IMG/VR virus record: IMGVR_UViG_3300045988_178965
Coordinates: 96,001 to 160,000 of that record
Source: a virus
DNA: 64,000 nt
Reading direction: 5' to 3' (one strand)
Made by a program: the position numbers and the translations under genes. The notes under the pieces were generated by a model. It was not told the DNA's origin. It saw only the letters and a list, made by a program, of their open reading frames with translations, and did not search any database. Numbering within the stretch: position 1 is the stretch's first letter; every line of letters starts with the position of its first letter. Below, piece after piece: positions 33,541 through 58,287 of this stretch.

Positions 33541-33744
33541 TTAACTTTCGTAATGCTTCAAAACTTTAACATCTGTACAAGAACCATATCTTGAAAAATA
33601 CAATTGTTGCAATTCTCTTTTCTTTTCAACGGCTTTGTCATATCCATAACATAAACAAATTGTTTTATTGTCAAAGCCGTTTTTACATACGACTACTCTG
33701 TACAGATTATCTTCAAAATTAGAAGAAGTAACCAATTGAAGCAC
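33541..33744 (-). CDS. hypothetical small protein
   Basis: 67-aa ORF whose start overlaps the adhesin 3' end by 26 nt. Confidence 0.3.
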
Positions 33745-35576: not shown

Positions 35577-36344
35577 TTAAAGCAATAAAGATTTATCGCA
35601 TTCTTCGATGACTTCGTATTCACATACACGAGCCTTAGAGCCATCATAATCAATAGGCACTGATACGAAATTTCTTGGGTTGACGCGAAGTTTGACTAGT
35701 CGCCATTTACCATCAGGTGACTGTCCATAACCGCTACTGCGCAAATATCGCAATGAGGCAGCATGGAGACCTTTAGAGCATGTTCTATTGTCATCGTCAT
35801 CAATTTGGTTTCGCGGCATCTTAATCAGGGAACCAATTGAATTATTAATGGTTCCTGTATAAGAATCGGTCCAGTCTTCACGAATAACCTTATAACAGAT
35901 AACATAGCCATCTTTATCAATTTCGATATCATTGTGACCAATGAACGAATAGAGATTGTTAATTGTTTTTCGTGACGGATTTTCTTCCAAATTCTCAAGG
36001 AATTTAAGGAATGATTCTGGGGCAATTTCATTGTCACCAATTCTACAGGCGCGACTTACAAATTCTGAAATTTCCTTTTTTACCAATTCAGGTAAATCAG
36101 AATCACAAAGTTTGCCTACCAAAATGTCAACTTTATATTTGCCAATATAGACATAACGGACTTCTGAAATTTTCAAAAAGGTACGAGCCGCATTTTGGTT
36201 TTGATACCAGTCTCTAAGAATTTCATCAAAGTCATTCTTAATAACCGGAGAGTTGAAGAGTTTTGCTGTCAAAATATTTCCATTATTTTCAACAGCAGTT
36301 GCAACAATAAATTTGTCAGGATTGACTGTTACGTTGTAATTCAT
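35577..36344 (-). CDS. hypothetical protein
   Basis: 255-aa ORF. Its start overlaps the upstream gene end. Confidence 0.5.
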   Translation of the reverse strand: MNYNVTVNPDKFIVATAVENNGNILTAKLFNSPVIKNDFDEILRDWYQNQNAARTFLKISEVRYVYIGKYKVDILVGKLCDSDLPELVKKEISEFVSRACRIGDNEIAPESFLKFLENLEENPSRKTINNLYSFIGHNDIEIDKDGYVICYKVIREDWTDSYTGTINNSIGSLIKMPRNQIDDDDNRTCSKGLHAASLRYLRSSGYGQSPDGKWRLVKLRVNPRNFVSVPIDYDGSKARVCEYEVIEECDKSLLL

Positions 36345-38325: not shown

Positions 38326-38371
38326 AATTTCACTCCATTAAAAAATAAATATAGTATTAAAATAAGATTAA

Positions 38372-38396
38372 GCGGACAGGAATATATCCTGCCCGC
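38372..38396 (-). terminator. intrinsic terminator-like hairpin
   Basis: GCGGGCAGGA/TCCTGTCCGC stem between the RNAP-like gene and the GHKL gene. Confidence 0.5.
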
Positions 38397-38409
38397 CGAT
38401 TAACGCATC

Positions 38410-41400
38410 TTACAGAAAATCGATATCAATTTCCTTAGCTTCTGTCACATTGTTTTCAGAGCTCGAATCAACTTCTTCGATGCTAAGTTGACCAATACAT
38501 TGATTGTATACATCAAAAGCAGGCTTAATCATTTTGCCTACGAATGTTTTGTCTACAATCAAATTGAACCACTTAGACACTTCAGGGTCTTTCAAGTCAA
38601 TAGGCTCGCCATTGTTATCAACGGTTTGACCCTTATTATGCATACGCAGGAAATCACCAGTAAGCTTAATAAGGTTATGCTGATCGGCCCAAATAGCAAT
38701 ATTAATAATGGTCATAGCTGTTTCACGACTATATCCCATTTCATTCACAATTGCCTCTACTACTTCTTTATGAACCGTTTGGTCAGAGCCTAATGTGCCC
38801 AACATGAATTTCTGATGTTGAGTTGCACCACCTTTAATATGCTTAATTGCATTGATAACGTAACGCTCATTGGTTTCAGTGTAGACATGGTCACACTCTT
38901 GAGCAAGTTTATCATTAAGTGGGATTTTTACAAACTCTTTGCCAGTTTTGCCGGAAATGGCACGATAAGCCAAATCGGAATCTTCATTCAGCAATGCCAA
39001 ATAAAGCTCAATAAGCATACCGAACTGCCAAGAGTTATTAGTGCCGGGACCCACAGCTTTCTTCGCATTGGCAGAGTTTGTAATTAAATCAATATAGCTT
39101 TCATCACCAGGACGTTTACAATAGGTCGGAGTATAATGCAACTTATACTTTTTGGTCCAATCCAATTTCTTAATGCTGTCATATTCTGATTGCAAGAAAT
39201 CTTCGTCCCATTGATACATCTTATCGGTAATGTTGCTAAGAGTGAACTCTTTCATCATTTGCTGAGCTTCTTCTGGCAATACAGTAATCTGTAGTAAGTC
39301 ACCGTCAATATCAGAGTGGCTACCTTTGATTACATCTTTGCCAATCAATGCACAATGCAAATTGGATTTGACATCCAGATAATCTTCTAATGCAAAGCCA
39401 TATTCCTGTTTGAGATAAGTGTCAAACTTGTTTACGTCCCACAATTCTTTAATCAGCAACTGTGTTTTCCACAAAAACGGTGAACGCAATGTGAAAGCAT
39501 AGAGCTTCTTAAAGGCCTGAACAATGCCTTGTTCAACCGGCAAATTCTTGGTTGGATAGACATATTCATGCAAATCGGTATAAATACGATTATTCAATAC
39601 AACGACAACGCCATCAGGGACGTATACATCGTGCATCTGTTTCATATTTACGCCGCGCAATCGTGGTGTAATCATGGTTTGAATTAATGTCTGTCCTGAA
39701 ATCTCTGAAGAATACAGCATAGACTTCAAAGATGCCATGTAATTGCCATAAGCGCTTACACGATTTTGGTTGCTCTCATTACGACTCGGAATAATCCGGT
39801 AGTAATAAGGTTTACCAAGCAAAGCATTCTGAATAATCTTACAAACTTCAATCAGAATACCAGGATAAACATACTCGCCATTCGTTTGCTTACTACAGAA
39901 CATACCCAAAGTTTTAGCATCTGGAATACGGACTAACGTATTTTGACGCTGTTCGCTTAAATTAATATAGAAGCCTTTATTAAAGTCTTCATCAAGAAGC
40001 TTAGAATACAATGGGAAGATAGAGCTATGTTCCAGAATCAAATCTTTTTCAGAGAAATGATTCTTTAAACTGCTTAATGTATAAACAGGTTTATGCTCAG
40101 CAGACACAAAACGGCGCGTCTTATCATTCAAACATTTCATCAACTCAATTACAGCTGACTTTTCATCCGGATCAATACAATTGTCCAGAATATATTGTGC
40201 CAAACCGGAATCTTTTGTTTGAGAAATATAACGTAAAGCATTAAAGCTCATCTTTTGGTTTCGAACAACCGTAAAATGGCTACCAATTTCAGTATAGTTA
40301 ATCTGAATCACACCATACAGACGAGTCTTAAACTCAACTTCCTTACCTTCACGAATCATCTTAAAGGTTACTTCCGGAATGGATTTAGCAGCAGCGTTAA
40401 TTTCTTCCTCATCCATAGATGATAAAAGCTTATCGCCAGAGGCTGGAGTATAATAGCCATATTTCAATGCAAAAGCTGCTTGCATTAAACGTACAGTATT
40501 CTCTTTAGCCTTGATACTATTGACACCTGTAAAGATGTCAACTTCCATTTCGAAATCATCGGAATAGATATGACCACAAGTCATCATGGTTTTGGTTACA
40601 CCTTTCAGACCTGTATGAGAAGTGATTCGAGAATTGCCTACTTTGTAATAGGCTACGAAATCAATTCGAGCAGAGTTGTTGTAACCATTCTGAGAAACTT
40701 TAGTTACCTCAATTTTGACAACATTATCTACTGCAATCGGACGACGATCAAATACGCCCAATGTTACAGAGCCATTTCGCGCTGTATATGTTTCGCCTTC
40801 TTTAACGAGAATTTCATCGAATTCCGTTTCTTTATGGCGATTCATAAATACAATTTGGTTACCAATACGGCGATTGACCTCTAAGTCACCGCCAACTTGA
40901 TGGTAACTCTCAAAGTCAATATCCTGATAGACAACGATTGCATCTAAGCCACCATTATCCAAAGGAATATGATCACCGTTTTCGTCGAAAGCAAATGAAC
41001 CATCAGGGTTAATGGCTGCGTCCTCAATAAACAAAGGTTTATCGGGTTGCAACACACCAAAATGGTTGCCATTTACGTGAGTTTTCAAACGAGCAGGCAA
41101 CGCTGAGGCTCTAGGAAAGATAGACGAGAATCCAACAATACGATCTTCATTATCATATTCAAAGCCAAATCCAGCGCAAGAAATTTCTGCTTCACCATTA
41201 GAGACAACAATTTTGTTGCTTTCAGAAAGCATAGTTTCTGAACCTGGCATCAGGTTAAAGCAGTTAGCCATAGCTGTAATGGCTTCCTTGTCGGGGCTTG
41301 TAATTACACGTTGATGAACCAAATCACCAATAGGCAAATCACGATTCTTATAAACCAAAGATGTTCCAGTATTAGTGCTGTAAGGCGCCCACAAAACAAG

Positions 41401-41850
41401 AAGATTTGATGATTTCAGATTCGCATTGAAAGCATTCGGGCTTACATATTCAACGAAGTTCGTAATCAGCTTAATGTCACGACGAATATAAGTCGTAAAG
41501 ATTTCGTTGTTCTTCAGAGCATCTTCAAATCGTTCAGCCAGGAAGAAGTACAACATTTCAAAGTGATTGATCACTTCAATTGGTGCCCGTTTATTAATAT
41601 GGCGCGAGCAAAATGCAAAATGAGGCCAATGATTCTTTGGATTGAAGAATGATTCAGGAATAACAAATTCTGTTTCAACCGTTTTATCATTAATCACATT
41701 GATGACTTTAAAGCCGAATGTATCAGACTTAAGTTCAAACTCAATTCGACCCTCAGCAGTCAAATGTTCACGGAAAATCGAAAACACTTCTGCTGGTGTA
41801 GAGTTTTTGTTGATTACAGGAATTTGTCCATTTGAAATTCTTAAATGCAT
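38410..41850 (-). CDS. single-chain two-barrel RNA polymerase-like protein 1 (YonO/QDE-1/crAss-vRNAP class)
   Basis: Beta-like SHTGLKGVTK (nt 40591-40620), LRSPFLW, then DIDGD (nt 39298-39312). Confidence 0.65.
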   Translation of the reverse strand: MHLRISNGQIPVINKNSTPAEVFSIFREHLTAEGRIEFELKSDTFGFKVINVINDKTVETEFVIPESFFNPKNHWPHFAFCSRHINKRAPIEVINHFEMLYFFLAERFEDALKNNEIFTTYIRRDIKLITNFVEYVSPNAFNANLKSSNLLVLWAPYSTNTGTSLVYKNRDLPIGDLVHQRVITSPDKEAITAMANCFNLMPGSETMLSESNKIVVSNGEAEISCAGFGFEYDNEDRIVGFSSIFPRASALPARLKTHVNGNHFGVLQPDKPLFIEDAAINPDGSFAFDENGDHIPLDNGGLDAIVVYQDIDFESYHQVGGDLEVNRRIGNQIVFMNRHKETEFDEILVKEGETYTARNGSVTLGVFDRRPIAVDNVVKIEVTKVSQNGYNNSARIDFVAYYKVGNSRITSHTGLKGVTKTMMTCGHIYSDDFEMEVDIFTGVNSIKAKENTVRLMQAAFALKYGYYTPASGDKLLSSMDEEEINAAAKSIPEVTFKMIREGKEVEFKTRLYGVIQINYTEIGSHFTVVRNQKMSFNALRYISQTKDSGLAQYILDNCIDPDEKSAVIELMKCLNDKTRRFVSAEHKPVYTLSSLKNHFSEKDLILEHSSIFPLYSKLLDEDFNKGFYINLSEQRQNTLVRIPDAKTLGMFCSKQTNGEYVYPGILIEVCKIIQNALLGKPYYYRIIPSRNESNQNRVSAYGNYMASLKSMLYSSEISGQTLIQTMITPRLRGVNMKQMHDVYVPDGVVVVLNNRIYTDLHEYVYPTKNLPVEQGIVQAFKKLYAFTLRSPFLWKTQLLIKELWDVNKFDTYLKQEYGFALEDYLDVKSNLHCALIGKDVIKGSHSDIDGDLLQITVLPEEAQQMMKEFTLSNITDKMYQWDEDFLQSEYDSIKKLDWTKKYKLHYTPTYCKRPGDESYIDLITNSANAKKAVGPGTNNSWQFGMLIELYLALLNEDSDLAYRAISGKTGKEFVKIPLNDKLAQECDHVYTETNERYVINAIKHIKGGATQHQKFMLGTLGSDQTVHKEVVEAIVNEMGYSRETAMTIINIAIWADQHNLIKLTGDFLRMHNKGQTVDNNGEPIDLKDPEVSKWFNLIVDKTFVGKMIKPAFDVYNQCIGQLSIEEVDSSSENNVTEAKEIDIDFL

Positions 41851-41886: not shown

Positions 41887-41917
41887 GAAAAGACCGACAC
41901 TCAATCGAGTGCCGGTC
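41887..41917 (-). promoter_or_regulatory. GTGTCGG-type intergenic hairpin + U-tract
   Basis: Minus sense reads GACCGGCACTC-loop-GAGTGTCGGTC followed by TTTTC. It lies 43 nt upstream of the ATG at 41850. Confidence 0.6.
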
Positions 41918-45926: not shown

Positions 45927-45959
45927 AAATAAACCGACACCAATATAATGGCGTCGGCT
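45927..45959 (-). promoter_or_regulatory. GTGTCGG-type hairpin + U-tract
   Basis: AGCCGACGC-loop-GTGTCGGTT followed by TATTTAT. Two G.U pairs form only in minus sense. A ~200-nt structured leader follows. Confidence 0.55.
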
Positions 45960-45971
45960 ATATTTAAGGTT

Positions 45972-46250
45972 TTAGTAAAGTGAGAATTTTTCGATCAAAT
46001 AGACCACAAACTTTCCAGTATGGATCGTTGCAATATGGCCTAAAATGACGGAAATAACAAACAATAGTACATTAAACGGCCCATTGTTTCTCAATTTGGA
46101 AAAAGCTTTGATGTTGAAAACGCTTTTATGCAAATTCGAAAGAATGAAACCGATATATACAGCCAGGAAAATAACATACAGTATGCCTGTGGGGTTATTC
46201 ACTACGGCATTGTAAATGAAATAATCCCATATATTTGTAAAAACAAACAT
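45972..46250 (-). CDS. membrane protein
   Basis: 92 aa with 3 TM helices. Confidence 0.45.
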   Translation of the reverse strand: MFVFTNIWDYFIYNAVVNNPTGILYVIFLAVYIGFILSNLHKSVFNIKAFSKLRNNGPFNVLLFVISVILGHIATIHTGKFVVYLIEKFSLY

Positions 46251-46271
46251 GATAAATCCTTATTAGTTGTC

Positions 46272-46436
46272 TTATGACCTAATTTTAGCAATTAAATCGT
46301 TGACTAAACAGAAAACAATAACCGGCAAATTCAGAATAAAGGCAATAAGAACATAAAAAATAGTACACACGATAATTACTAAAAATACCGGTATAAACGC
46401 CAATAATTGAGCAAAGCCAAGCAGGAAGTTCATCAT
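46272..46436 (-). CDS. small membrane protein
   Basis: Trimmed to the ATG at 46436, downstream of the preceding stop. Confidence 0.4.
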   Translation of the reverse strand: MMNFLLGFAQLLAFIPVFLVIIVCTIFYVLIAFILNLPVIVFCLVNDLIAKIRS

Positions 46437-46441
46437 AGGGG

Positions 46442-46900
46442 CTATTCCTTCACAATAATACCATTTCGGCAAATATTTATTTCTACGCCTTCTACAATTT
46501 TAGGTGTATAAATGCCTACATACAGTCGACCTTGGAAGTTTCGTACCCAAGATACAATATATTTCGTTTTAGGAGACATAAACGTATACCGAATATAAGG
46601 ATCACCATTATTATCCGACACTCTATCAATATGCAACGGGACTTTAAAATTCTGCTCAAGATCAGATAAGAACCAATTCAGATTGCCATAAAGAGTTTTG
46701 GCATCATAGTTCTTAGAAGCATATTCCATAATAGAATCAAAAATAGGGTTGCCGCGGAGAGATTTGATATAATCCGCATTGGACAATTCATCAATAAAAT
46801 TCTCAATAGCGGAAATATATTCTTTACCTACACCAGAGCTCCAGTCAATAGGCTTAGAATTAGGGTCGAACATGGTAGAAAACAAGTTTAAAGGAATCAT
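46442..46900 (-). CDS. hypothetical protein
   Basis: 152-aa ORF. Confidence 0.5.
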   Translation of the reverse strand: MIPLNLFSTMFDPNSKPIDWSSGVGKEYISAIENFIDELSNADYIKSLRGNPIFDSIMEYASKNYDAKTLYGNLNWFLSDLEQNFKVPLHIDRVSDNNGDPYIRYTFMSPKTKYIVSWVRNFQGRLYVGIYTPKIVEGVEINICRNGIIVKE

Positions 46901-46952
46901 TTAAAGCCTCCATAGGGCCTTATATAAAGACCCTATAACTTATTATTTGTAA

Positions 46953-47228
46953 TTACTGCAAATGAACTTCTTCGCCATCACATTCTACACACTCTTCGTC
47001 ATTACTACCAAACGAAGAGAATAATGATGTAACAGCAGGTGTAATAATCCAGATACAGCCAATAAATATTGCAAGTCCAGTAACTAAGGATGCAAATGTA
47101 GAGTTGTAGATAAAGCAAATTAAGGAAATACCTAATACTGCGCAAACCTTAAATATTGAAAGGCGCCCCTGTTGATTGTAGAACAGACGCGCCGCAATAA
47201 GATTGAAACGAGATTTCAAAAAGCCCAT
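46953..47228 (-). CDS. membrane protein
   Basis: 91 aa with 2 TM helices and an acidic Cys-containing tail. Confidence 0.45.
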   Translation of the reverse strand: MGFLKSRFNLIAARLFYNQQGRLSIFKVCAVLGISLICFIYNSTFASLVTGLAIFIGCIWIITPAVTSLFSSFGSNDEECVECDGEEVHLQ

Positions 47229-47366
47229 AATATAGCTCCAAATGTAATAACTGTAATCAATTTTAGCTATTTAAATACAAATAACAATAGCAAAAAATGA
47301 TATAAATATAAATGCCCGCGTAATAAGCCTTTAAATAATAGCACTTTACAACGGGCCTTTTAATTA

Positions 47367-47708
47367 TTAGATATATTCGTATTTAGAATACAATTTCTTG
47401 AACATATCACCAATCGGCCATTGAGCAGGATGATAGACCCATTTCTTATTTTCATACTTTTTATAGCCAATCAGTTTCTTCATAATGAACAAAGAACAGC
47501 CGAAAATAAGGCCGGTAGCAGCACCAATCACAAAACCAGACATTGTTCCCGAAACGCCACAAGCAAGGCCAATTAACAAGGAAAAACAAAGGTCTACGTA
47601 AGCTTCATAGCCTAAAACCTTATACAAAAGCTCCACATTAGTCTTGGCCAAGATAGACAATATAGCCAAAGAAGTAATAGCGGAGCCAAACAATATCATA
47701 GAAATCAT
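47367..47708 (-). CDS. membrane protein
   Basis: Trimmed to the ATG at 47708 (GGAG RBS). The annotated extension overlaps the intergenic motif. Confidence 0.45.
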   Translation of the reverse strand: MISMILFGSAITSLAILSILAKTNVELLYKVLGYEAYVDLCFSLLIGLACGVSGTMSGFVIGAATGLIFGCSLFIMKKLIGYKKYENKKWVYHPAQWPIGDMFKKLYSKYEYI

Positions 47709-47734
47709 GATAACTCCATATATAATATTTACCA

Positions 47735-47757
47735 CAAAAAACCGACACAATATCGAT
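47735..47757 (-). promoter_or_regulatory. GTGTCGG-type element
   Basis: ATCGATA-TTG-TGTCGGT followed by TTTTTG. It lies 33 nt upstream of the ATG at 47708. Confidence 0.5.
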
Positions 47758-47822
47758 TTTATAAATATTCAAAAACTAGTAGCGTAAGAGCTAAAAGAAG
47801 GGCCCGCCGGCCCCTTTACCTT

Positions 47823-48500
47823 TTATTGGCGTAAAAACCAAAAATAAAAAACTTCAAAAACAAAGATAGATGCAAAAATTAAACATCCATAAAAGCAAAT
47901 ACAAGCATAAAAAATACAACAACCAAAAAATAAACAACAAACCAAAACAAAATAGAATAAACCATAATAAACAAATACACTCCCAAATATAAAATAGAAC
48001 TTATACATCTACATAATACAAAATAGAATCATGTACAAGTATAAATACTAATACATCTGTACTTCAATACAATACAGATAAACTTAAATACGAACTGCAT
48101 TACAATGTACTCTAATATAGACTACATTATATGAGTACGGTCTACATTATTGTACAAGCAGAGACTAAATTATACTGAACTCTTCAATACGGACTGCATT
48201 ACCTATATTGGCTAAATATACATCTTAATACCTATTTATAGGTCTGTGCACCTACAGGTACATTTTGACACCTGTATAGCCTACAAATAGACTCTGTGCA
48301 CCTGGTAGTCCAGTCCATTAAAACCCTTGCAAATACTAGCCTTACGGCTATTGGTTGCATTCTTATTATTCTTAGTATACTTATATCTCTTATGTATTGT
48401 ATTAGTATTATTTATGCTTTTAATCAATACAAGGACGCGCCCGTCCTGCCTATATTAACCGTCTATTGACGTCTATATTGACTGCTTATTAGCACTTTTA
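47823..48500. repeat. ORF-free strand-asymmetric region with degenerate direct repeats (possible origin or ncRNA locus)
   Basis: The plus strand is nearly G-free from ~47823 to 48050. Repeats follow: CTTCAATAC x2, CTGCATTAC x2, CTACATTAT x2 and CTGTGCACCT x2. Confidence 0.5.
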
Positions 48501-48505
48501 CCACA

Positions 48506-48537
48506 AAATAACCGACACTTTTCAGACGTCGGTATCC
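48506..48537 (-). promoter_or_regulatory. GTGTCGG-type hairpin + U-tract
   Basis: ACCGACGT-loop-AGTGTCGGT followed by TATTTTG. Confidence 0.55.
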
Positions 48538-48946
48538 GCTAAAGGAGAAAATGATACTTTAGGAATTATTCTCATTTAGGCCTGTTTTCTGCCTAAAACA
48601 GTCCATTTTTGCTGATATACACTGTATTTCTGCAAGAATTTAGCCATTTTACTACTGATTTTACTATATCATTTATTTCTGAACGAAAAACCTGTATCTA
48701 TATAAATCAACAACTTAGATAACTTCGCTCCCTTAGCCATATAAAACAAAATTAATCACTCATTTATTCTTGAACGATATCAACAATTCAACCATTCAAA
48801 AGAATAAAATCATAAGAAAGGTACCGACACAACACGTCAACCAGTCAAAAAAGACAAAAATACTGGTGCACAAATACATGCACACCAGCATTCAATGGAC
48901 TATAGATTGATAGGGGCTCGCTTACGCTCGCCCGTATCAGACTCTA

Positions 48947-50335
48947 TTAGAACGGACCGTCTTCGTCGTCTGCTTGAGGTTTGGTTTCAGTAGGTTGGGC
49001 TTGACCACGACGTGGACGTTTGGTTTCTTTGGTTTGAGCAGGTTTCTCGCCTTCTACTTTAGCAGTATCAGAAAAGATATCTACATCACCCAAGTCCAGA
49101 CCGTCAACGTTCAGAGCGTCCAAATCAACGTCTGCGGCAACAGTAGTAGAGCCGGTTTCATTACGGTTGATGATATAACCGTCCATAGTAACGCGTGCTG
49201 TAACTACCCATGGTTGACCAGTTTCGTCGTCTTCACGTGGGGTGCGGCTTTCGAAACCGAGGACGTTATTCTCGGTGAACATGATTTCATCGGCATTGCT
49301 GCTTACGAAATCGAATGCTTCGGCGCGAGTTTGTCCACGGCCATTGTTGCCATTGCTGTACATAACTGCACGTACAGTAACGTCATTACCACGGCTGTCT
49401 TTGAAGTTAACGAACTTACGGCAATATTGAGTCGGATTGGTACCTTCTGTTACTTGAACACCAGCCAGATAGCCATCATGCAATTCGTCTTGCTCCAGGT
49501 TTGTCATTTCAGCTTGACCAGTAATAGTCAGACAGAAGTTAGGGGCAATACGGCCATATGCACGTGGGGTAGTGCGGACATCAATTTGTTTGCCGTTGCT
49601 GGTGGTTTTGTAACTTGCTGCTGCAATCGGTACAATGCAAGGGCTCAGGCCATTTGCACCAACGTAGATTACAGTAGAAGTCGCAATTGCACCTGCGTCA
49701 ACCAAGCGTTTGATTTCGGCTTTGTAACCTGCAACGATTTTGGCCATCATTTCAGACAGCTGTTGTTCGTTATAGGTTGCGCGTTCACCGTTCTTTTCAT
49801 AGGCGGTAACGATGCCTTTATCGTGGCTGACGAACGCAGAGCCGGACAGCAATGCTTCATAACCTTTGGTCAGGCTCAAAGCCTTCAACGCCAGGCCATT
49901 TGCCTTCTCATACCATTCGGAACCAAATGCTGGACCTACAGGAACAGGGAAGTTTGCCAATTTGCCATTTTGAATGCTCAAACCATTGAAGCCTGCATCC
50001 AGGAATTCCATAGCATTTGCATTGCTATTACGGACAGACGCAACGATTTGGTTAGTAGTCATACCTTCAACGTATTGCACACCGTCGTCGGCATTAGTAG
50101 CAACCCAGCAGGCACGGCCATTACTACGGCTCATTGGGGTATTTGCAATCATGTGCACCAGTTTGTACACGGAAATGCGGTAACCCAGGGCTTCATTCTC
50201 GTCTTGGCGAGCGTCCAATACATAGAATGTACGGCGAGATGCTGCCATTGGTGTTGCAACCTGACCGCTAACGCTGTGGAATTTGTTACGGCCAGTGTTC
50301 AGGGCGCCAGTGTCGATTTGATTCAGTTCGTTCAT
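48947..50335 (-). CDS. abundant-looking protein with an SSB-like acidic C-terminal tip (function uncertain)
   Basis: 462 aa. Strong codon bias, shown by a stop-free antisense frame. C-terminus ...KPQADDEDGPF resembles the SSB/gp2.5 acidic tails (DDDIPF, DGDF). Confidence 0.5.
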   Translation of the reverse strand: MNELNQIDTGALNTGRNKFHSVSGQVATPMAASRRTFYVLDARQDENEALGYRISVYKLVHMIANTPMSRSNGRACWVATNADDGVQYVEGMTTNQIVASVRNSNANAMEFLDAGFNGLSIQNGKLANFPVPVGPAFGSEWYEKANGLALKALSLTKGYEALLSGSAFVSHDKGIVTAYEKNGERATYNEQQLSEMMAKIVAGYKAEIKRLVDAGAIATSTVIYVGANGLSPCIVPIAAASYKTTSNGKQIDVRTTPRAYGRIAPNFCLTITGQAEMTNLEQDELHDGYLAGVQVTEGTNPTQYCRKFVNFKDSRGNDVTVRAVMYSNGNNGRGQTRAEAFDFVSSNADEIMFTENNVLGFESRTPREDDETGQPWVVTARVTMDGYIINRNETGSTTVAADVDLDALNVDGLDLGDVDIFSDTAKVEGEKPAQTKETKRPRRGQAQPTETKPQADDEDGPF

Positions 50336-50435
50336 GATGATTTTTCCTTTTTAGGTTGATTGAAATAAAAGATTCTTTCGGTCAAGATTCAGACCATAGA
50401 GCTGTTTTGGATTGAGGTCAGCTCTGTTACCTCAT

Positions 50436-50470
50436 AAAAATACCGACACGACAATTTCTGCCGCGCCGAT
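50436..50470 (-). promoter_or_regulatory. GTGTCGG-type hairpin + U-tract
   Basis: ATCGGCGCG-loop-CGTGTCGGT followed by ATTTTTAT. Three G.U pairs form only in minus sense. It sits directly after the stop at 50477. Confidence 0.6.
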
Positions 50471-50476
50471 ATCTTA

Positions 50477-50773
50477 TTATCTCACCTTAATATTTCGCAA
50501 ATAGGAATCTGCAAAGTTTAGTGAGCGTTCAATGTAAGCTACACTAGGATTATTTAGCGCAGTTACATTATTCAGGCTATCAGACAATATCAAGGCACCT
50601 GGATTAGACTGTTTAGCGAAAAGAATTGCTTCCAGTTCTGCCGTATTGTTATCTGATGCAAGAATAGTTTTATGACCATTTACTGCCATATTCAGTGAGC
50701 AGTAACCAATTTTCCATCGATTGCCGCCCACTAAACGAGCGTCGCAGTAAATCTTATCAGGCTGCGGCCGCAT
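50477..50773 (-). CDS. mini RNase H-like protein
   Basis: IYCDA...AELEAILFA...ILSDS gives D/E/D spacing. ATG at 50773 with a GAGGAAG RBS. Confidence 0.5.
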   Translation of the reverse strand: MRPQPDKIYCDARLVGGNRWKIGYCSLNMAVNGHKTILASDNNTAELEAILFAKQSNPGALILSDSLNNVTALNNPSVAYIERSLNFADSYLRNIKVR

Positions 50774-51734
50774 TTGCTTCCTCAATATGTTCTTTCATTG
50801 CACGCATAATTACACCTTCTTTAGACTTGCGTCCAAAGTCTTTGGTAGTTGCTGCGTCCAAGATAGACAGCATTTTACCTAAGGTATAACCGGCAATATC
50901 ACGAACTGTGCCAAGAATCTTAATTACACCGCCATAGACGTACATAACCAAACCTTTGGCCAAGTCCAATACGAACGAGCCGCCAGTTTTACAGCCAACC
51001 CAAATCTTATGGGTCCAGCCTTCTTTGTCTTCATCGTCAGTGTTCTTGACAATATCAGACAGCAGTTTGCTGAATTTTGCGGATGTTTCTTCGTCAACAC
51101 CCTCCAATCCTTCATAGAATTGGTTTGCCGCTTCATTCAACACGGCCTTTTCGGCGGTCAGTGTAGAAACACCAGTTGCGTCAGTAGTACGGTTGTATTT
51201 AACCAACGCAGTGAGGTATTCTCCCACATTCTTCAACAGCTCTGGGGTCACTTCGTCACCCTCAAATGCTAACATTTCGGACTTAATGTCCTCCACGGCG
51301 ACATTGAACTTGTCGATGTTAGCGAATTTGGCTTCTGCACCGGCGATAATTTGGGCGATTGTTTGGGTTTGGGTATTTTGAGTCATGATTTCATTTCCTT
51401 TAGCTAAAGTTTCAGATTGGGTTTCAGTTTTCACTTCGGTTTTGGACAATTCTTCTGCCCGTTTGAATACAGACAGAGTAACAGGCCCAATTTGCTCCGG
51501 ATTTTTGAGCTCGGTTCCAGAGATGGTGACCGTAACACCATTATTCTCAACAAAGCCTTTATGTGTGGCTTCACCTAAGACCGACATCCATAGAACAGCG
51601 GTCTCTGTAATTTTCTTTTCAACGGCATTTTTATGAACGCCGGTAAGTTTTTGATATTGAAGCTCCAATTTATGAAGCTCACCTTGCAATTGAAGCAGGA
51701 CTTTCTTTGCCTGCTTTTGGTTTTTGATTTCCAT
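50757..51734 (-). CDS. acidic coiled-coil protein
   Basis: Trimmed to the ATG at 51734 (GGAG RBS). The annotated 5' end lies inside the intergenic hairpin. Confidence 0.5.
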   Translation of the reverse strand: MEIKNQKQAKKVLLQLQGELHKLELQYQKLTGVHKNAVEKKITETAVLWMSVLGEATHKGFVENNGVTVTISGTELKNPEQIGPVTLSVFKRAEELSKTEVKTETQSETLAKGNEIMTQNTQTQTIAQIIAGAEAKFANIDKFNVAVEDIKSEMLAFEGDEVTPELLKNVGEYLTALVKYNRTTDATGVSTLTAEKAVLNEAANQFYEGLEGVDEETSAKFSKLLSDIVKNTDDEDKEGWTHKIWVGCKTGGSFVLDLAKGLVMYVYGGVIKILGTVRDIAGYTLGKMLSILDAATTKDFGRKSKEGVIMRAMKEHIEEANAAAA

Positions 51735-51766
51735 TTCGGACTCCAATAAAGCAACATGCCTTTCCA

Positions 51767-51800
51767 CAAAAGAACCGACACCAAAACTAATCGGTGCCGG
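51767..51800 (-). promoter_or_regulatory. GTGTCGG-type hairpin + U-tract
   Basis: GCCGGCACC-loop-GGTGTCGGT followed by TCTTTTG. It lies 40 nt upstream of the ATG at 51734. Confidence 0.6.
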
Positions 51801-51810
51801 CAACTTTTAT

Positions 51811-52107
51811 TCAGATGAGCTCAAAGTAAGGGTCATAAGTAGTACCCTTATGGACATATTTTCCATCCTCGAGCTCATATACTGTAACGTTCTGCCCCAT
51901 AGGAAGAGAAGTGTCACAAACATAGATTTTAGTAAAACCCAAAGAGCTCAAACTTTCGTCCATCTTTTTGTCAGACGAATGTTCGAACATGTCGATCCAC
52001 TCTGCTTCTAATTTGCCGACGCTGGATTTCAATACGACAGTTTTGCCGTATGCCCAGTGGCGGATTTGTTTCAGAAAACGGTTGATAGAAGGGTTCTTTT
52101 TAGCCAT
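51811..52107 (-). CDS. hypothetical protein
   Basis: ATG at 52107 preceded by GGAGATAATC. Confidence 0.5.
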   Translation of the reverse strand: MAKKNPSINRFLKQIRHWAYGKTVVLKSSVGKLEAEWIDMFEHSSDKKMDESLSSLGFTKIYVCDTSLPMGQNVTVYELEDGKYVHKGTTYDPYFELI

Positions 52108-52144
52108 GATTATCTCCATAAAAGGCTGTTAAAATGTTTACCGC

Positions 52145-52172
52145 AAAAGAACCGACACTAATTATATCGGTT
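52145..52172 (-). promoter_or_regulatory. GTGTCGG-type hairpin + U-tract
   Basis: AACCGATAT-loop-AGTGTCGGTT followed by CTTTTG. Confidence 0.6.
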
Positions 52173-52220
52173 CAGATACTAGGGTTTAAACCAAGTTACT
52201 ATTGGCCTTAATTAAAAAAC

Positions 52221-52251
52221 AAAATGACCGACACCTCCTCAGATGCCGGCC
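52221..52251 (-). promoter_or_regulatory. GTGTCGG-type hairpin + U-tract
   Basis: GGCCGGCA-loop-TGTCGGTC followed by ATTTTGTTTTTT. It is in tandem with the previous element. Confidence 0.6.
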
Positions 52252-52259
52252 ACTACAAA

Positions 52260-52625
52260 TTATTCAATACCAATCAGGTCTTTTGCGAGCTCATTCAGCT
52301 CTTTGTCAGATTCATTCATACGAACCATGAATAGACGTAAAGCTGGTGCAACTGTCAATACAAAGTTCATGATTGTATTGAACTTAGAGGTCCAAACGCG
52401 GATTGCTTTGCACGCCCAATCTTTGTTAATTTCGATTGAGACTTCAGCGCTACCATCTTCATTACCGGATTTCTCCCAATACAGGGTATCCTTGTTGATT
52501 TTGGTAGGATTTTTGCCGCTAATGCCTACCATGCTGTTGAATTCGCCCTCACGAGCAAAATACTCTGCGCCGGCTTCTTGCAAGGCTTTAACTTCTTTCT
52601 TAGCAAATTCGATTTTGATTTTCAT
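52260..52625 (-). CDS. hypothetical protein
   Basis: 121-aa ORF. Confidence 0.5.
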   Translation of the reverse strand: MKIKIEFAKKEVKALQEAGAEYFAREGEFNSMVGISGKNPTKINKDTLYWEKSGNEDGSAEVSIEINKDWACKAIRVWTSKFNTIMNFVLTVAPALRLFMVRMNESDKELNELAKDLIGIE

Positions 52626-52664
52626 ACAATTTCCTTTATATTAGTGATTGGGGTTATTCCCATA

Positions 52665-52690
52665 AAAAGACCGACACAAAAATATCGGCC
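52665..52690 (-). promoter_or_regulatory. GTGTCGG-type hairpin + U-tract
   Basis: GGCCGATAT-TTTT-GTGTCGGTC followed by TTTTTAT. Confidence 0.6.
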
Positions 52691-52697
52691 CCTTAGG

Positions 52698-53012
52698 TTA
52701 CAAAATTTCTACCTCAACATCATGAGCTAGAAACGGCATATTCTGTTTGGCAATCAAGATTGGATTTTGGCCTTCTGTCACATAAATCACATCAGACTCT
52801 GTTCGGCCATCAATTAATTCATATGTCACATAATATTGCCAGTCTTGACCAATATGGAATGTTGCAACAACTTCACCATTAGAATAGGCCTTTACCATTG
52901 CGGCCTCATCCTCTGAGAACTCTATCTCTTTCTTGATCGCATCGATGTCGAGGCTGGAAACTTCATATTCCTCGTTAAAGAGATTACTTCCAAATACCTT
53001 AATGCTATACAT
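52698..53012 (-). CDS. hypothetical protein
   Basis: 104-aa ORF. Confidence 0.5.
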   Translation of the reverse strand: MYSIKVFGSNLFNEEYEVSSLDIDAIKKEIEFSEDEAAMVKAYSNGEVVATFHIGQDWQYYVTYELIDGRTESDVIYVTEGQNPILIAKQNMPFLAHDVEVEIL

Positions 53013-53252
53013 TTTGGATTACTCCATTTATTTATATCGTTAAAATACCGACACAAAAACCGTTGATGTTATGCAACCTATATTCAATACGGAGTTTATA
53101 AATGTCCTAGCGTATTTATATGCGTGGTTGCAACATGTTGATACCCTGTTACCTGTCCAGCGGGTGAAAAAAGGTGGGCCGCCACTGTATTGTAAAAACA
53201 ACAAAGTAGGGCCCAAAGTTTTTATGGAGGTAAAAAGGATTCAAATGTTTCC

Positions 53253-53296
53253 AAAAAGAAACCGATACCAAGTGCAACAACGCTCAAGGTATCGGC
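53253..53296 (-). promoter_or_regulatory. variant hairpin (GGTATCGGTTTCTTTTT)
   Basis: Perfect 8-bp CCGATACC/GGTATCGG stem followed by TTTCTTTTT, within a 310-nt ORF-free gap. Confidence 0.5.
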
Positions 53297-53326
53297 AAAA
53301 CTTACAGGGAAATCATATATGTCATA

Positions 53327-53358
53327 AAATAACCGACATCCTTTTACAGATGCCGGCC
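53327..53358 (-). promoter_or_regulatory. GTGTCGG-type hairpin (GATGTCGGTT variant)
   Basis: GGCCGGCATC-loop-GATGTCGGTT followed by ATTTTAT, directly after the stop at 53369. Confidence 0.55.
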
Positions 53359-53368
53359 ATTGTACTGT

Positions 53369-53572
53369 TCAGATAAACGAAAACTCTTCGAATCTAGAAA
53401 ACCTCAAAGAATTATCATCTTGAATCTCAAAGATTACCATATCATCATCTTCTGAATGACTTACAATTACATCCAAGAAGTGCTTCCATATGGAAACCTC
53501 TTTATTGTTTCCTAAATCGGCCCTAAGTTCGTCAATAGAGCCGTAGGCCAATTTAAATTCGAAAGATACCAT
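53369..53572 (-). CDS. hypothetical small protein
   Basis: Trimmed to the ATG at 53572 (GGAGG RBS, TGATG overlap). Confidence 0.45.
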   Translation of the reverse strand: MVSFEFKLAYGSIDELRADLGNNKEVSIWKHFLDVIVSHSEDDDMVIFEIQDDNSLRFSRFEEFSFI

Positions 53573-53751
53573 CAAACCTCCAGCCCTTTGACTTCGATAT
53601 CGACGGCACCAACATCTTCCATACATGTGGAGATGCAAACTTGCTCATATACATCATCCCAGTCCATAGGGACTTCATACGAACGAAGGAAATCCTTACG
53701 GCTGCCATCTTCCATTGTAAATGTAACCAAAAAATCTGTATATTTTTTCAT
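53572..53751 (-). CDS. hypothetical small protein
   Basis: Trimmed to the ATG at 53751 (GGAGG RBS). Confidence 0.45.
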   Translation of the reverse strand: MKKYTDFLVTFTMEDGSRKDFLRSYEVPMDWDDVYEQVCISTCMEDVGAVDIEVKGLEV

Positions 53752-53781
53752 GATGAAACCTCCATTAAAATTATTATCAGT

Positions 53782-53810
53782 AAAAGACCGACACATTCAC
53801 GCATCGGTCC
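53782..53810 (-). promoter_or_regulatory. GTGTCGG-type hairpin + U-tract
   Basis: GACCGATGC-loop-GTGTCGGTC followed by TTTTAC. It lies 36 nt upstream of the ATG at 53751. Confidence 0.6.
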
Positions 53811-53819
53811 GAAATTCTA

Positions 53820-54116
53820 TCAGAACGGGTGATCTTCACTCGCGTTCTCTTTATGAAACTTCTCTGCATATTGAGAAGCCCACTTATTAGGATTCATGCA
53901 ACCTTTACCTGGGGTTGCAAACTCATGAACGGCGGAGCAGTAAACTGCCATACCATCCTGAGTCGGAATCCTACGGAACCAGCCGGGGATGTCCTTTTCA
54001 GGCATCTCAACGCCGACTGGCATAATGAAACTTGCGCCACGATACGCAGCGCTTGCAACATCGCCGGCACAAAGTTGTGCAAACGGTGAATCTGGGGTAA
54101 TGACGAATTGTCGCAT
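53820..54116 (-). CDS. hypothetical protein
   Basis: 98-aa ORF with a GGAGGG RBS. Confidence 0.5.
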   Translation of the reverse strand: MRQFVITPDSPFAQLCAGDVASAAYRGASFIMPVGVEMPEKDIPGWFRRIPTQDGMAVYCSAVHEFATPGKGCMNPNKWASQYAEKFHKENASEDHPF

Positions 54117-54133
54117 ACCCTACCCTCCGAGAA

Positions 54134-54182
54134 AGAAAAGAAAACGGTAGGACGAATCCTACCACCGTTGAAAGACCGACAC
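54134..54182 (-). terminator. GTGTCGGTCTTTC motif followed by a canonical strong terminator hairpin
   Basis: GGTAGGA-TTCG-TCCTACC stem (extended by AACGG/CCGTT) followed by TTTTCTTTTCTTTC, between the RNAP-like gene 2 and the next gene. Confidence 0.6.
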
Positions 54183-54272: not shown

Positions 54273-57200
54273 TTACAGCATGTCGATAGCTTCGTCCATA
54301 TCAACATCAACTTCATGATAAGACTCAGCTTCAACAGTCTCACCATTAGCCAAGGCTTCAGCCTCAGCCAATTTAACTTCCGCTACAACCTGAATTTGGG
54401 CAATCACTTCACGGCTTAAAGCTTTCAAGATGAAGCTAAATGGAGACTTGCCGTCCATATCCAAGAGGGCATTAACACCTTTGACATCATCCAGACCAAA
54501 GAAGAATGATGTGTTATAAATCTCGGATACATCCTTAGTGTACACATCAAAGTGTACATTCTTCCAGGTTGCGGTATGAGCCATGCGGACTGCATTGGTT
54601 TTATTCCAACGGTAACCTTGCTGACCGCGGCTACGTTTGTCCTCTTCGAACAGTTCTACAAATGTCTTGGCAATTTCAAACGCCATAGAATCATCCTGAA
54701 TGAACATCAGTTCGAATGCTTTTTCAAACGCCTCAGTCATGCAGTCAATGTCAGTTTCTTTATTGCGAAGGTTCAGATATTCGCAGAAACGCACCATGCC
54801 GTTTGAGTGTTTCATGTTCTCAACGACTTCTTTTTGCAACAAGATACCCATAGCATCAATAGCCAAGTTGGCCATGTCACTATAACCCAGTTTGTTGCGG
54901 ATCAGATGTGTCAGAGTAATGAGATTATTAGTCTCACTGCCCACACCTGTCTTAGCCGCAACGATTTCCTCTACCGCTGGTTGAACGTCTTCTTTTCCCC
55001 ATACCATAACGGATTTCTCACCAATCTCCTTGGTATTCAGAGAAGATAACTCATCTTCAACATAAGAGAGTTGCTGTTTGGCAGAGTTGCAGGCCAACAG
55101 CTTAGACTCGCTCCATTGCTCTTGGCCTTCATAACCTTTGGCCCAGAACAAGGTGAGGCGGTCGCCGTCAGCATCGTCCCTATTGGCCATATGAGAAAGG
55201 GCATCAACAAAGACTACTGATTCGCAGATGAAGCGATTCAGCTCCAATTCTGCTTCAGAGTCAAAAGACATCAGGGTTTTAACCTTAGCTTCATAGAGGC
55301 GGAAGTTATTTTCCATCAAGATTGGAAACTTAATAGCACCCACTTCGCCTTTCTTAGCAGCCTCTTTGTATTGGCGGTCAGCGGTAATAACCTTAAAGCC
55401 GCTTTCAAAGTGATAGCTAACTGGCAGGCTACGACCTTTTGGCAAGCTGAATTTCAAGCCCTTGTGAGAGCCGAAAGTTTCCTCGATAGCCAGCAGATGT
55501 TTGGCATGAGTTTTAACTACTCCTGCAGCTTCCCAAGTTTTAGTGCCACGGGTTTTGGCCATCAGCACAATAGAGGCAAGTGACTTGAAGAAATCACCAC
55601 CAGTAAATTGCAAACCGGAGATATGATCTCCAGTGATTGTTTCCTGTTTGTCCCAGAATGATGCACCTGGGAATACGAAACTGTGATCACCGGCAATCAC
55701 CTCGAAGCCACGAGGCATATTTAACAGACCAGGGAAACGACCACAGCCGTTGAATAAATTAACCAGGAATGTCTTCATCACTGATTGTGAAGATTCATCA
55801 CCAACAAGTGTGGTGTATTTAACTTGTTCAACTGACAATGAACCATTGCCAGCAAACATGACAGCAAATCTATCCGCCCACCATGCACGAGTCATAGCCA
55901 AGAATTCGTTAGCGGTGCAAGACCAATCTACGTTTTTGGCAGCCGCAACAGCTTTAGCTGTTTTACGACCAGTACGGCCAGAAATGAAGGACTTAAATAG
56001 TCCCTCACCATATTGACGAATCATTTGATCCGCCAAAAGAACACCGCCTTCAGCAGAATGAGATACTGCTTCTACAACACCAGCACGCTTCATCTCCAGC
56101 AAGCGAACCACTGGAGAGTAAGTAGTATCACCAGCCTTTAACTCAGACAGAAGTTCATTCATCAGTGTCATTTCAGGAGACTCAATCTCAATCCCCTCGA
56201 TCTTATCATTGATGCTTACTTCAGTACCAACGCGACGGTGGCCTTGCAAAGTGTAAAAGTCGGAGACATAAATCTCTTCTTCGATAACCGCAAAGCTGTA
56301 CACCAGACCATCTACATTTACGGTCTTAGTGTTCATTGTAATCGCAGTATTCGCTGTTTCTCGGAAGTCTGCATCATTCAACAAACGAAGCATAAATTGA
56401 CTTAAATCGCCACCCATAATTGCATGGGCGACTCCGACCATTTTGGACTTCAGCATTGGGCTGATAATATCTACACCCAAATAGTCCACCAAAGCGTCGA
56501 TGTCGCGGACATTTGTAACAACGCCTTTGGCATGGTGGAACGATACAATACGCATAGTGCCGTACTGCTGGACAAGTTCCTTGCGGCCATAACAAGCACC
56601 GCCAGCCAAATTCATAGCCAAAGGATGATCTTTGATATCAGCCAAGCTATTAACTTTCTCACCATTCTCATTGGTTACAGATAAGAGCACAGCCACCTTG
56701 CGAACACCAATGGATACTTTGGTGTCTAAATCCGGATTCAGAATGCCCCTTGCAATTGCCTTTTTGCAATCATACACCGAAATGTATTTACCAGATTCCT
56801 CTGGGTGATTGACGGCAACCATGGTATCAGCCGCCTTGCGAGAGATAAACATAGCGTCACCAACTGGCATACCTAATTTCCAGCTGGTGTCAGGACTAGT
56901 ATTCAGCAAATCGCCTTGCTGAACCTTAACACCTTTAGGAGCAGGCTTCTCGGACTTAACTACTACAACACCTCCAGGTTTGCGCTTAAGGGCGTCCACC
57001 AATTTTACGCCTTCTGTGCCAATACCGGCCAGCCAGTCGATCAAGACGTCGATGCTTTCGGTAACGGATACAATTCCGTCTTTGTAAGAAACGAAACCGT
57101 GACGTGCAACTGTTTCACGGCCAAGCGGGGAATTTACCAAAGATGTAGCCAAAGTTCCTCTCTGTGCAACTACGCGAACAGAGCCCTTTGACGGACGACG

Positions 57201-58117: not shown

Positions 58118-58119
58118 GC

Positions 58120-58287
58120 TTACTCTCCTTCGTATTGAGTAAGGATACGACACTCTTTCTCAGAGTGTTTTGTTGTAACCTTACAGTGTTGATAATCGCT
58201 TCTTCTCATTGCATTGCTAATACCACCGAAAGCGGCATTAATGGAGATAATAGCGACGATAGCAATCAGGACATAACGGATTTTCAT
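58120..58287 (-). CDS. small secreted Cys-containing protein (55 aa, below the ORF-track cutoff)
   Basis: MKIRYVLIAIVAIISINA signal-like N-terminus. GGAAATCATT precedes the ATG. Confidence 0.4.
   Translation of the reverse strand: MKIRYVLIAIVAIISINAAFGGISNAMRRSDYQHCKVTTKHSEKECRILTQYEGE

Follow-up and report, generated by a model that had tools for sequence, protein, structure and literature searches.

We analyzed a 64,000-nucleotide (nt) stretch of viral DNA (IMG/VR record IMGVR_UViG_3300045988_178965, positions 96,001 to 160,000; hereafter the window, with ~124 kb of the genome lying outside it), in which the 1146-amino acid (aa) product of open reading frame 1 (ORF1; 38410..41850, minus strand, ATG start) is best explained as a compact single-polypeptide RNA polymerase (RNAP) of the two-barrel, i.e., double-psi beta-barrel, type. 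Judging from the predicted fold of the protein and the residues conserved across its family, we consider this explanation likely. The ORF1 family is very probably a new, sequence-orphan family of single-chain RNAPs, where the 23 families of PMC10770324 were compared by description only, and the phage probably supplies transcription machinery of its own.

Catalytic motifs and conserved residues of ORF1

In the window, ORF1 is uninterrupted by any frameshift or insert and holds a beta-like and a beta-prime-like half in one reading frame. Its translation contains the three motifs that an earlier sequence-only reading of this DNA had listed, and in the same order, i.e., RITSHTGLKGVTK (with SHTGLKGVTK), LRSPFLW, and SDIDGD, with the DIDGD element as far past LRSPFLW as that reading had put it, ~55 aa (P791 to D847, about 55–56 residues). 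The first motif is a beta-type catalytic strand (40591..40629, minus strand, as for all ORF1 and ORF2 features below; aa 408–420) with an invariant R408 and, in ≥90% of the family, a K416, the two being spaced 8 residues apart like K1065 and K1073 of Escherichia coli beta. It is followed by VDIFTGVNSIKAKENT (40495..40542; aa 437–452, with an invariant K447), the counterpart of beta VDIVLNPLGVPSRMN. The beta-prime-type barrel would comprise LRSPFLW (39469..39489; aa 788–794), an R-x-P element comparable to beta-prime NRAPTLH, and SDIDGDLLQITVLP (39274..39315; aa 846–859), a candidate metal-binding DxDGD loop and the strand after it, comparable to beta-prime NADFDGDQMAVHVPL. Across six-frame translations of the window (ORFs ≥100 aa), the pattern D.DGD occurs twice, once in ORF1 and once in a second gene, ORF2, described below. 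Together with the family conservation given next, this speaks against a chance occurrence of the motifs. ORF1 also contains the pattern [RK]xP x{20,100} DxDxD, which served as the screen for viral RNAPs in PMC10770324.

Conservation within the family is concentrated on these elements. In a 62-sequence alignment of the ORF1 family reaching down to 15% identity, R254, R408, K447, G513, P643, R789, P791, and W794 are invariant, as are D847, D849, G850, D851, W881, K930, T937, and K1003, while G414, K416, and H1004 are conserved at ≥90%. In an 18-sequence alignment, R408, S411, G414, and K416–K420 are invariant, with RxP..W and SDxDGDL conserved. At the sequence level, these conserved residues are exactly those that a two-barrel polymerase would need, i.e., a basic pair 8 residues apart, R-x-P, and an aspartate triad.

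Two further elements lie toward the C terminus. A 37-residue helix with AKKAVGPGTNNSW (38986..39096; aa 919–955), predicted by DSSP of the AlphaFold2 model, holds the invariant K930 and T937, and its AKKAVGPGTNNSW motif is common to ORF1 and ORF2. VINAIKHIKGGA (38824..38859; aa 998–1009) is a trigger-loop-like K-H-x-x-G-G element that aligns with ENMKHSNG of ORF2 and includes the invariant K1003 and the ≥90% conserved H1004. We infer that the helix is a bridge-helix candidate and that IKHIKGGA is a trigger-loop candidate.

These elements suggest how the enzyme might be organized. The N-terminal ~720 residues would form the catalytic part of a beta or second-largest subunit, and the C-terminal ~420 residues the catalytic core of beta-prime. 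By analogy with multisubunit enzymes, D847, D849, and D851 of the second barrel would coordinate the catalytic Mg2+ ions, and R408 and K416 of the first would interact with the 3′ end of the RNA and with the incoming nucleoside triphosphate. The roles of bridge helix and trigger loop may fall to the helix at aa 919–955 and the K-H-x-x-G-G element at aa 1003–1008, respectively. Most likely, such an enzyme would transcribe a class of phage genes from a DNA template independently of the host polymerase.

Predicted fold of ORF1

A full-length model of ORF1, built with AlphaFold2 from the 18-sequence alignment and without templates, reached a predicted local distance difference test (pLDDT) score of 83.4 and a predicted template modeling (pTM) score of 0.79. 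When this model was compared to the PDB using Foldseek, 79 matches were obtained at E ≤ 1e-3, and all 50 of the top 50 were beta or second-largest-subunit (Rpb2-type) RNAP chains; the beta-type chains matched were bacterial, archaeal, Pol I/II/III, and plastid, and the best match was 8ehq_C (E 5e-7, ~680 aligned columns). The model also places an all-beta stretch (aa 333–403) directly before the catalytic strand. In BFVD, the strongest matches were ME3 gp152 (1e-46), a Microcystis phage MaMV-DC protein (8e-11), and ME3 gp154 (2e-9), followed by a 1423-aa “minor tail protein” (8e-9) and by giant-virus and poxvirus beta subunits (~1e-6); an uncultured crAss-type phage “DNA helicase” (2e-4) and LEF-9 (0.017) matched more weakly.

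Because the beta part dominated this full-length search, aa 722–1125 were modeled separately (pLDDT 76.7). Among the top 50 PDB matches of this C-terminal fragment, 44 were beta-prime or largest-subunit chains (E 0.07–0.5), several of them at a probability of 0.9–0.99 over ~166 columns at 6–7 Å. They include a cyanobacterial gamma chain (probability 0.99), the AR9 non-virion RNAP (nvRNAP), and P74-26 gp62 (rank 9, E 0.17, 8f5m), and the other top 50 matches include one to the double-psi beta-barrel protein VAT-N and five to OGG1. The structural comparison proposed in the sequence-only reading thus had a positive outcome, with beta RNAP chains matched at full length and beta-prime chains matched, weakly, by the fragment. 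Overall, the modeled fold supports the beta-type barrel well, the case for the beta-prime-type barrel combines a consistent but weak fold signal with an invariant motif, and the proposal that both double-psi barrel signatures are combined in one polypeptide holds up on the fold matches of both parts and the invariant motifs.

The same matches bear on what kind of polymerase ORF1 might be. No T7-like (palm/fingers/thumb) chain was found among the PDB fold matches of ORF1, which also has no Pfam RNA_pol (PF00940) or corresponding PHROG match. One alternative is that ORF1 is an active two-barrel polymerase with another job, i.e., a QDE-1-like RNA-dependent RNA polymerase (RdRP), a primase-like enzyme, or a PolD-like DNA polymerase, given that RdRPs and archaeal PolD also belong to the two-barrel superfamily (PMC7824862; PMC11348598) and that ORF1 sits among genes of nucleic-acid and nicotinamide adenine dinucleotide (NAD) metabolism and not within an obvious transcription module. 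However, the top 50 full-length matches are all DNA-dependent RNAP subunits, with neither a PolD nor a QDE-1 chain among them; PolD is likewise absent from the top 50 of the fragment search and from the sequence matches; DxDGD, R-x7-K-G-V, and R-x-P are signatures of DNA-dependent RNAPs; and the window has a separate DNA polymerase-like gene (5156-6202). We therefore regard a different polymerase function as unlikely.

Sequence and profile comparisons with known RNA polymerases

Several results weigh against a two-barrel RNAP, most of them from comparisons at the sequence level. No RNAP match was obtained for ORF1 in Pfam, PHROGs, NCBIfam, or the PDB sequences, for PDB sequences searched with ORF1 alone or with its 18- and 62-sequence profiles, or for eight distant family members scanned singly against Pfam. 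In profile–profile comparisons with 70–76 proteobacterial beta or beta-prime sequences, scores were not significant (beta E 0.19, beta-prime E 0.007, probability ≤5.5%), and Smith-Waterman alignments of the ORF1 motif segments to E. coli beta and beta-prime did not outscore shuffles. The likeness of the ORF1 helix to beta-prime KTANSGY and that of its K-H-x-x-G-G element to beta-prime MRTFHIGGAA were seen by eye, and neither pairwise alignment is significant. On the structural side, the C-terminal fragment, i.e., the beta-prime barrel taken alone, had zero PDB fold matches at E ≤ 1e-3, and template modeling (TM) scores of the ORF1 fold matches were low (~0.2), so that the domain arrangement is uncertain.

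The profile search that the sequence-only reading had suggested as a check was hence negative, in that neither the ORF1 sequence nor its profiles resembled a known RNAP family or a solved RNAP significantly; solved single-chain RNAPs were not retrieved even at E ≤ 10 by ORF1-family profiles searched against PDB sequences, which include P74-26 gp62 (8f5m) and should also include the others, for which PMC10770324 cites structures. The likeness to beta and beta-prime motifs noted in that reading is accurate as a description, but it is not statistically significant, and since pairwise alignments score no better than shuffles, motif resemblance alone is not evidence. The sub-threshold matches of ORF1 to Speriolin_C and phrog_5138 were discarded as noise, and those to a nanobody, Med4, and PRP40 in the PDB sequence searches with ORF1 or its profiles as chance matches.

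The positions at which the best profile alignments fall are nonetheless those of the catalytic regions. Using hhalign, the best alignment of the ORF1 family to E. coli beta joins ORF1 394–452 to beta 1050–1109 and pairs R408 with K1065 and K416 with K1073 (E 0.09–0.19, not significant alone). Against beta-prime, the best alignment joins ORF1 836–869 to 449–483, i.e., the NADFDGDQMAVHVPL region (E 0.007–0.07), and its extended version sets LRSPFLW opposite RAPTLH. The same catalytic regions rank first against the proteobacterial beta and beta-prime sets.

Could ORF1 be no polymerase at all, but a structural or regulatory protein, a chance or model-artefact likeness, or a catalytically dead relic? 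The lack of statistically significant sequence similarity to RNAPs, the low TM-scores, and the mere 18 sequences in the alignment behind the AlphaFold2 model would all fit this alternative. Yet the catalytic residues are invariant over 62 sequences at 15–50% identity, the fold matches agree without exception across three domains of life, the paralogue ORF2 carries the same set of motifs collinearly, and mobile inserts target the catalytic motifs in relatives (see below). We accordingly hold a non-polymerase to be very improbable and retain a two-barrel RNAP as the preferred explanation.

ORF2, a second candidate in the window

The window includes a second two-barrel RNAP candidate, ORF2 (54273..57686, minus strand; 1137 aa), for which the ATG at 57686, used by all homologues, was taken as the start in place of the mechanical ORF start at 57728. 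ORF2 has a beta-type strand, RIVSFHHAKGVVT (56514..56552), with R and K 8 residues apart; two beta-prime-type elements within 55146..55334, i.e., IKFPILM (K-x-P element; 55314-55334) and RDDADGDRLTLF (DxDGD element; 55146-55181); and AAKTGVGSETNN (54924..54959), the counterpart of AKKAVGPGTNN in ORF1. Hence RIVSFHHAKGVV, IKFPILM, DDADGD, and AAKTGVGSETNN (AKTGVGSETNN) stand at nearly the same positions as their ORF1 equivalents.

The relationship between the two proteins is visible through profiles only. BLASTP of ORF1 against ORF2 gave no match, whereas a first profile match covered 109 columns over DxDGD and AK..VG..TNN (E 0.0036), and hhalign of the 62-sequence ORF1 profile against the ORF2-family profile yielded 702 collinear columns (Prob 94.6, E 7e-8), with every motif aligned. 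By these profile comparisons, ORF2 is a very distant collinear paralogue of ORF1, 12 kb away. As with ORF1, Pfam, PHROGs, and NCBIfam gave no match for ORF2. The sequence-only reading had reported neither a T7-like RNAP nor split multisubunit RNAP genes in the window; Pfam and PHROGs likewise detected none in the remaining large ORFs, but that reading missed ORF2.

Only close relatives of ORF2 were recovered, in 81 clusters, all at ≥71% identity; an alignment-based protein search and IMG/VR gave no more distant ones, and deposited phages, ME3 included, gave none (tblastn, E ≤ 10). In the tblastn search, aa 761–956 of ORF2, i.e., its DxDGD region, gave weak matches to “portal protein” genes of Bacillus Tsarbombavirus-type phages (BCU4, BCP78, and TsarBomba; E 0.02–0.09), which are not significant and may be due to chance. 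ORF1 and ORF2 occur together on 8 IMG/VR contigs of 107–186 kb, and on the same contigs ORF2 diverges faster than ORF1, e.g., 86% vs 99% and 72% vs 89% identity.

Distribution of the ORF1 family

Next, we evaluated the distribution of the ORF1 family. Among 50,697 deposited phage genomes, homologues were detected only in Acinetobacter phage ME3 and record PBAB25. The former, vB_AbaM_ME3 (Metrivirus), is a 234.9-kb jumbo phage in which the homologue (26.5% identity over 95% of ORF1 by tblastn, E 4e-56) consists of gp152 and gp154, both annotated as “hypothetical protein”. ME3 is the only cultured carrier of the family, with the gene split and unannotated. It resembles the window in being a large phage with NAD-salvage and Macro genes, and differs from it in that the homologue is split after VRNP by a ~1.3-kb insert with an “endonuclease” gene, gp153. 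ME3 has been described as a genomic orphan whose isolate was lost, and no RNAP was mentioned for it (PMC8878043).

A search of 5.8 billion proteins retrieved 20 ORF1 homologues on contigs of 170–198 kb, and an exhaustive hidden Markov model search yielded 184 clusters (50% identity) at E ≤ 1e-3 and 96 at E ≤ 1e-30, with most full-length members 1000–1376 aa long. The family is confined to phage-like contigs of 170–240 kb plus ME3; it is carried by a widespread clade of 170–190 kb metagenomic phages, some of them presumably human-associated, and by a single cultured phage, and it has remained invisible to all sequence libraries searched. In the literature searched on two-barrel phage RNAPs from 2020 onwards, it was not described.

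Inserts at motif-coding sites in ORF1 relatives

In contrast to the intact ORF1 of the window, relatives are interrupted at three motif-coding sites, RNP|xLW, DxD|GD, and AVG|PGTNN. At the first site, gp152 of ME3 ends in ...VRNPS and is followed by the gp153 “endonuclease” gene, after which the frame resumes with ...LWRTQ... before gp154 (locus L001 10290-11560). At the second, many relatives end at ...D-x-D, and separate pieces begin with (G)D... (proteins P0127-P0141 and P0177-P0178). At the third, interrupted in close relatives, the gene of locus L005 (8860-9158) stops at ...AKKAVG and, after ~290 nt without an ORF, resumes exactly at PGTNN, while locus L006 (8790-10172) has the same AKKAVG break followed by ~1.3 kb with a 361-aa ORF and again resumes exactly at PGTNN. 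In both L005 and L006, the upstream exon ends in U and the insert ends in G, as in the group I rule, and the two inserts share a conserved 3′ part.

Two of the inserts are ORF-bearing (the “endonuclease” gene in ME3 and the 361-aa ORF in L006), and no group I or group II model of Rfam matched the inserts splitting ORF1 relatives. At least two of the inserts are intron-like. Insertion has occurred independently at each of the three sites, which coincide with the three most conserved motifs of the ORF1 family, a pattern typical of essential, highly conserved genes and of the homing elements that invade them.

Relationship to known two-barrel polymerases

To our knowledge, phage single-chain two-barrel RNAPs are known from few families only, i.e., YonO, crAss gp66, and P23-45 gp64 and gp96. 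Each of the earlier single-chain families (YonO, crAss gp66, and P23-45) shifted ideas on the minimal size of a cellular-type RNAP and on the start of phage transcription. We compared ORF1 to these enzymes as well as to multisubunit RNAPs. Multisubunit beta (Rpb2) and beta-prime (Rpb1) provided the best structural matches for the two ORF1 halves, and multisubunit enzymes share with ORF1 the order of elements, from the basic pair 8 apart with G-V through R-x-P and DxDGD with its strand to a long helix, predicted in ORF1. ORF1 differs from them in being one chain of 1146 aa, compared to ~2750 aa for E. coli beta and beta-prime together, and in having no Pfam RNA_pol_Rpb1 or RNA_pol_Rpb2 match and no identified alpha, omega, or sigma partners.

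YonO of the Bacillus prophage SPbeta is, like ORF1, a phage-encoded single chain with both barrels and a DxDGD-type motif (PMC7824862). It is not among the 50 best BFVD fold matches of ORF1, and the likeness was otherwise judged from its published description. YonO-type enzymes are reported to have no beta-sandwich insert in the beta barrel, and among jumbo phages YonO-like single-chain enzymes were noted in 0305phi8-36 and c-st only (PMC7824862). The ORF1 model differs in having the all-beta stretch at aa 333–403, which may or may not correspond to such an insert. The crAss phi14:2 gp66 and QDE-1 are also single-chain two-barrel enzymes, with no sequence similarity to ORF1. The likeness to YonO, QDE-1, and crAss enzymes drawn in the sequence-only reading is therefore borne out as far as both barrels lie in one chain, but the fold matches point to multisubunit-type beta, and no solved single-chain enzyme (QDE-1, crAss gp66, or P74-26 gp62) was found in the top 50 full-length matches. 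Judged by the model, the resemblance of the ORF1 beta half to multisubunit beta exceeds its resemblance to the solved single-chain enzymes.

The closest parallel in gene content comes from P23-45 and P74-26, with non-virion enzymes gp64 and gp62, respectively, and a virion enzyme, gp96, fused to the tape measure protein. P23-45 encodes two very divergent paralogous single-chain two-barrel RNAPs, and its virion enzyme transcribes the non-virion enzyme's gene (PMC10770324). The window similarly has two divergent paralogous two-barrel candidates, P74-26 gp62 is among the fold matches of the C-terminal fragment, and BFVD yielded a strong match to the 1423-aa “minor tail protein”. Unlike P23-45 gp96, ORF1 and ORF2 are not tail-fused, each being ~1140 aa long and located in a non-structural region; ORF1 has no sequence similarity to the P23-45/P74-26 enzymes, and its fold matches to multisubunit beta are stronger. 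Among the 23 two-barrel families listed in PMC10770324, the viruses with two RNAP polypeptides include neither ME3 nor other Acinetobacter phages.

phiKZ and AR9 are large phages with two sets of two-barrel polymerase genes (PMC7598289, PMC7824862), as the source of the window would be. Their virion RNAPs (vRNAPs) and nvRNAPs are made of 4–5 separate subunits and are detectable by sequence, whereas the candidates in the window are one chain each and sequence orphans. The beta-prime piece of the AR9 nvRNAP is among the ORF1 fragment fold matches, and window-type genomes measure 170–190 kb. Neither chimallin nor tubulin turned up in the window, where no search was aimed at either.

Taken together, these comparisons suggest a family that comes as two extremely diverged paralogues and that seems to stand nearer to multisubunit beta than do the known single-chain enzymes. 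If active, ORF1 would be a ~130-kDa polymerase, probably insensitive to rifampicin, of use in mechanistic studies and biotechnology, and would explain how the phages that carry it transcribe their genes.

Hairpin elements and possible division of labor

We then evaluated possible transcription signals across the window. A de novo k-mer search for shared upstream motifs singled out two types of sequence only, the GTGTCGGT element and tRNA T-loops. GTGTCGGT occurs at 14 sites, all on the gene-sense strand, compared to 0.33 expected in the window; these are located, on the minus strand, at 3706-3713, at 41893-41900, and at 12 sites within 45933..54182, i.e., 12 of the 14 hairpin/T-run elements are clustered between ORF2 and ORF1, among small ORFs. 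In 11 of the 14, a stable hairpin with GTGTCGGT as its 3′ arm precedes a T-run, and the 5′ arm varies while pairing is kept; the other three have no good 5′ arm. Most sites lie 30–45 nt upstream of a start codon, with rTGG after the hairpin and T-run.

Upstream of ORF1 itself, a terminator-like hairpin (GACCGGCAC-TCGATTGA-GTGTCGGTC, then TTTTCATGG; 41892..41917, minus strand) ends 42 nt before the ATG. All ORF1 orthologues examined, which reach down to 45% identity (loci L021-L040), have a hairpin and T-run 45–50 nt upstream; its position is conserved, and its stem sequence is clade-specific, with compensatory changes. Another hairpin, of 11 pairs (7 G-C), directly follows the ORF1 stop codon, before rIIA (38371..38397, minus strand). 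No GTGTCGGT element was found directly upstream of ORF2. Terminator-like hairpins are enriched in the window overall (32 vs 13.9 ± 4.0), and sigma-70-like promoters are not enriched around its genes (53 found vs 55.1 expected).

On a conservative reading of these sequences, the GTGTCGGT hairpins would be intrinsic terminators. Given the short distance to the ATG and the invariant 3′ arm, however, there is room for a promoter or combined element, and GTGTCGGT elements may represent a phage-specific promoter, a combined element, or a mobile regulatory cassette. We take them to resemble the promoter-stem-loop cassettes of T4-type phages.

ORF2 would probably be a second polymerase, serving another temporal or promoter class and possibly delivered with the virion. 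This could take the form of a P23-45- or phiKZ-like split, in which ORF2 is packaged in the virion and transcribes the earliest genes, including ORF1, while ORF1 is a non-virion enzyme for later classes. Such a scheme refines rather than contradicts the two-barrel RNAP explanation, and we put it forward as possible but tentative. The presence of two distant paralogues in one genome, as in P23-45 (PMC10770324), is consistent with it, as are the faster evolution of ORF2 and the GTGTCGGT hairpin that precedes ORF1, like the small ORFs at 45.9–54.2 kb, with none directly upstream of ORF2. It is, however, weakened by the lack of recognized structural genes beside either ORF and by the failure to detect the ORF2 family outside its close clade or in ME3, and the opposite assignment of roles is equally possible.

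A more far-reaching reading would take ORF1 and ORF2 together as a complete, host-independent transcription system whose family is intermediate between cellular-type RNAPs and the YonO, QDE-1, and crAss enzymes. It would involve two minimal ~1140-aa beta–beta-prime fusions, each keeping a bridge helix and a trigger loop, and the hairpins with GTGTCGGT and a T-run would be the system's own promoter or terminator signals and not ordinary host-type terminators. We consider this reading rather doubtful.

Genomic setting of ORF1 and ORF2

The window matches a 187.6-kb metagenomic contig (ENA ERZ28662517, also Logan ERR589435). Nearly all of its genes are on the minus strand, and scans of the Pfam/PHROG type recognized no structural genes in the window and none adjoining ORF1 or ORF2. 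Directly downstream of ORF1 is an rIIA-like gene (GHKL ATPase; 36316-38325, minus strand), paired with an rIIB-like gene (35577-36344, minus strand). The same rIIA/rIIB arrangement downstream of ORF1 is found in loci L003 and L005 and is not found in L006, L007, or ME3. Next to this pair lies a gene for a YadA-type trimeric autotransporter adhesin with head, stalk, and anchor domains (33719-35512, minus strand), which points to a Gram-negative host. Relatives carry variants of this gene, including one with an ice-binding-like domain (L005).

Elsewhere in the window, we identified NAMPT, AAA ATPase, and exonuclease genes, as well as 12 tRNA genes (13481-21819, minus strand; Ser, Gly, three Leu, Trp, Tyr, two Met, Ser, Arg, and Pro). 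Within the tRNA cluster is a gene for a Ro60/vWA-like RNA-binding protein (19743-21338, minus strand), a type of protein that usually pairs with small Y-like RNAs. At 48947-50359, two ORFs of nearly the same length are fully antisense to one another, a minus-strand one of 462 aa and a plus-strand one of 461 aa; no family match was obtained for either, and public gene calls take the minus-strand ORF. The sign of the GC skew changes and the coding strand switches within 58000-60000, where a 496-nt non-coding stretch (58731-59226) separates divergent gene blocks, and an endolysin-like gene is located at 61519-62016.

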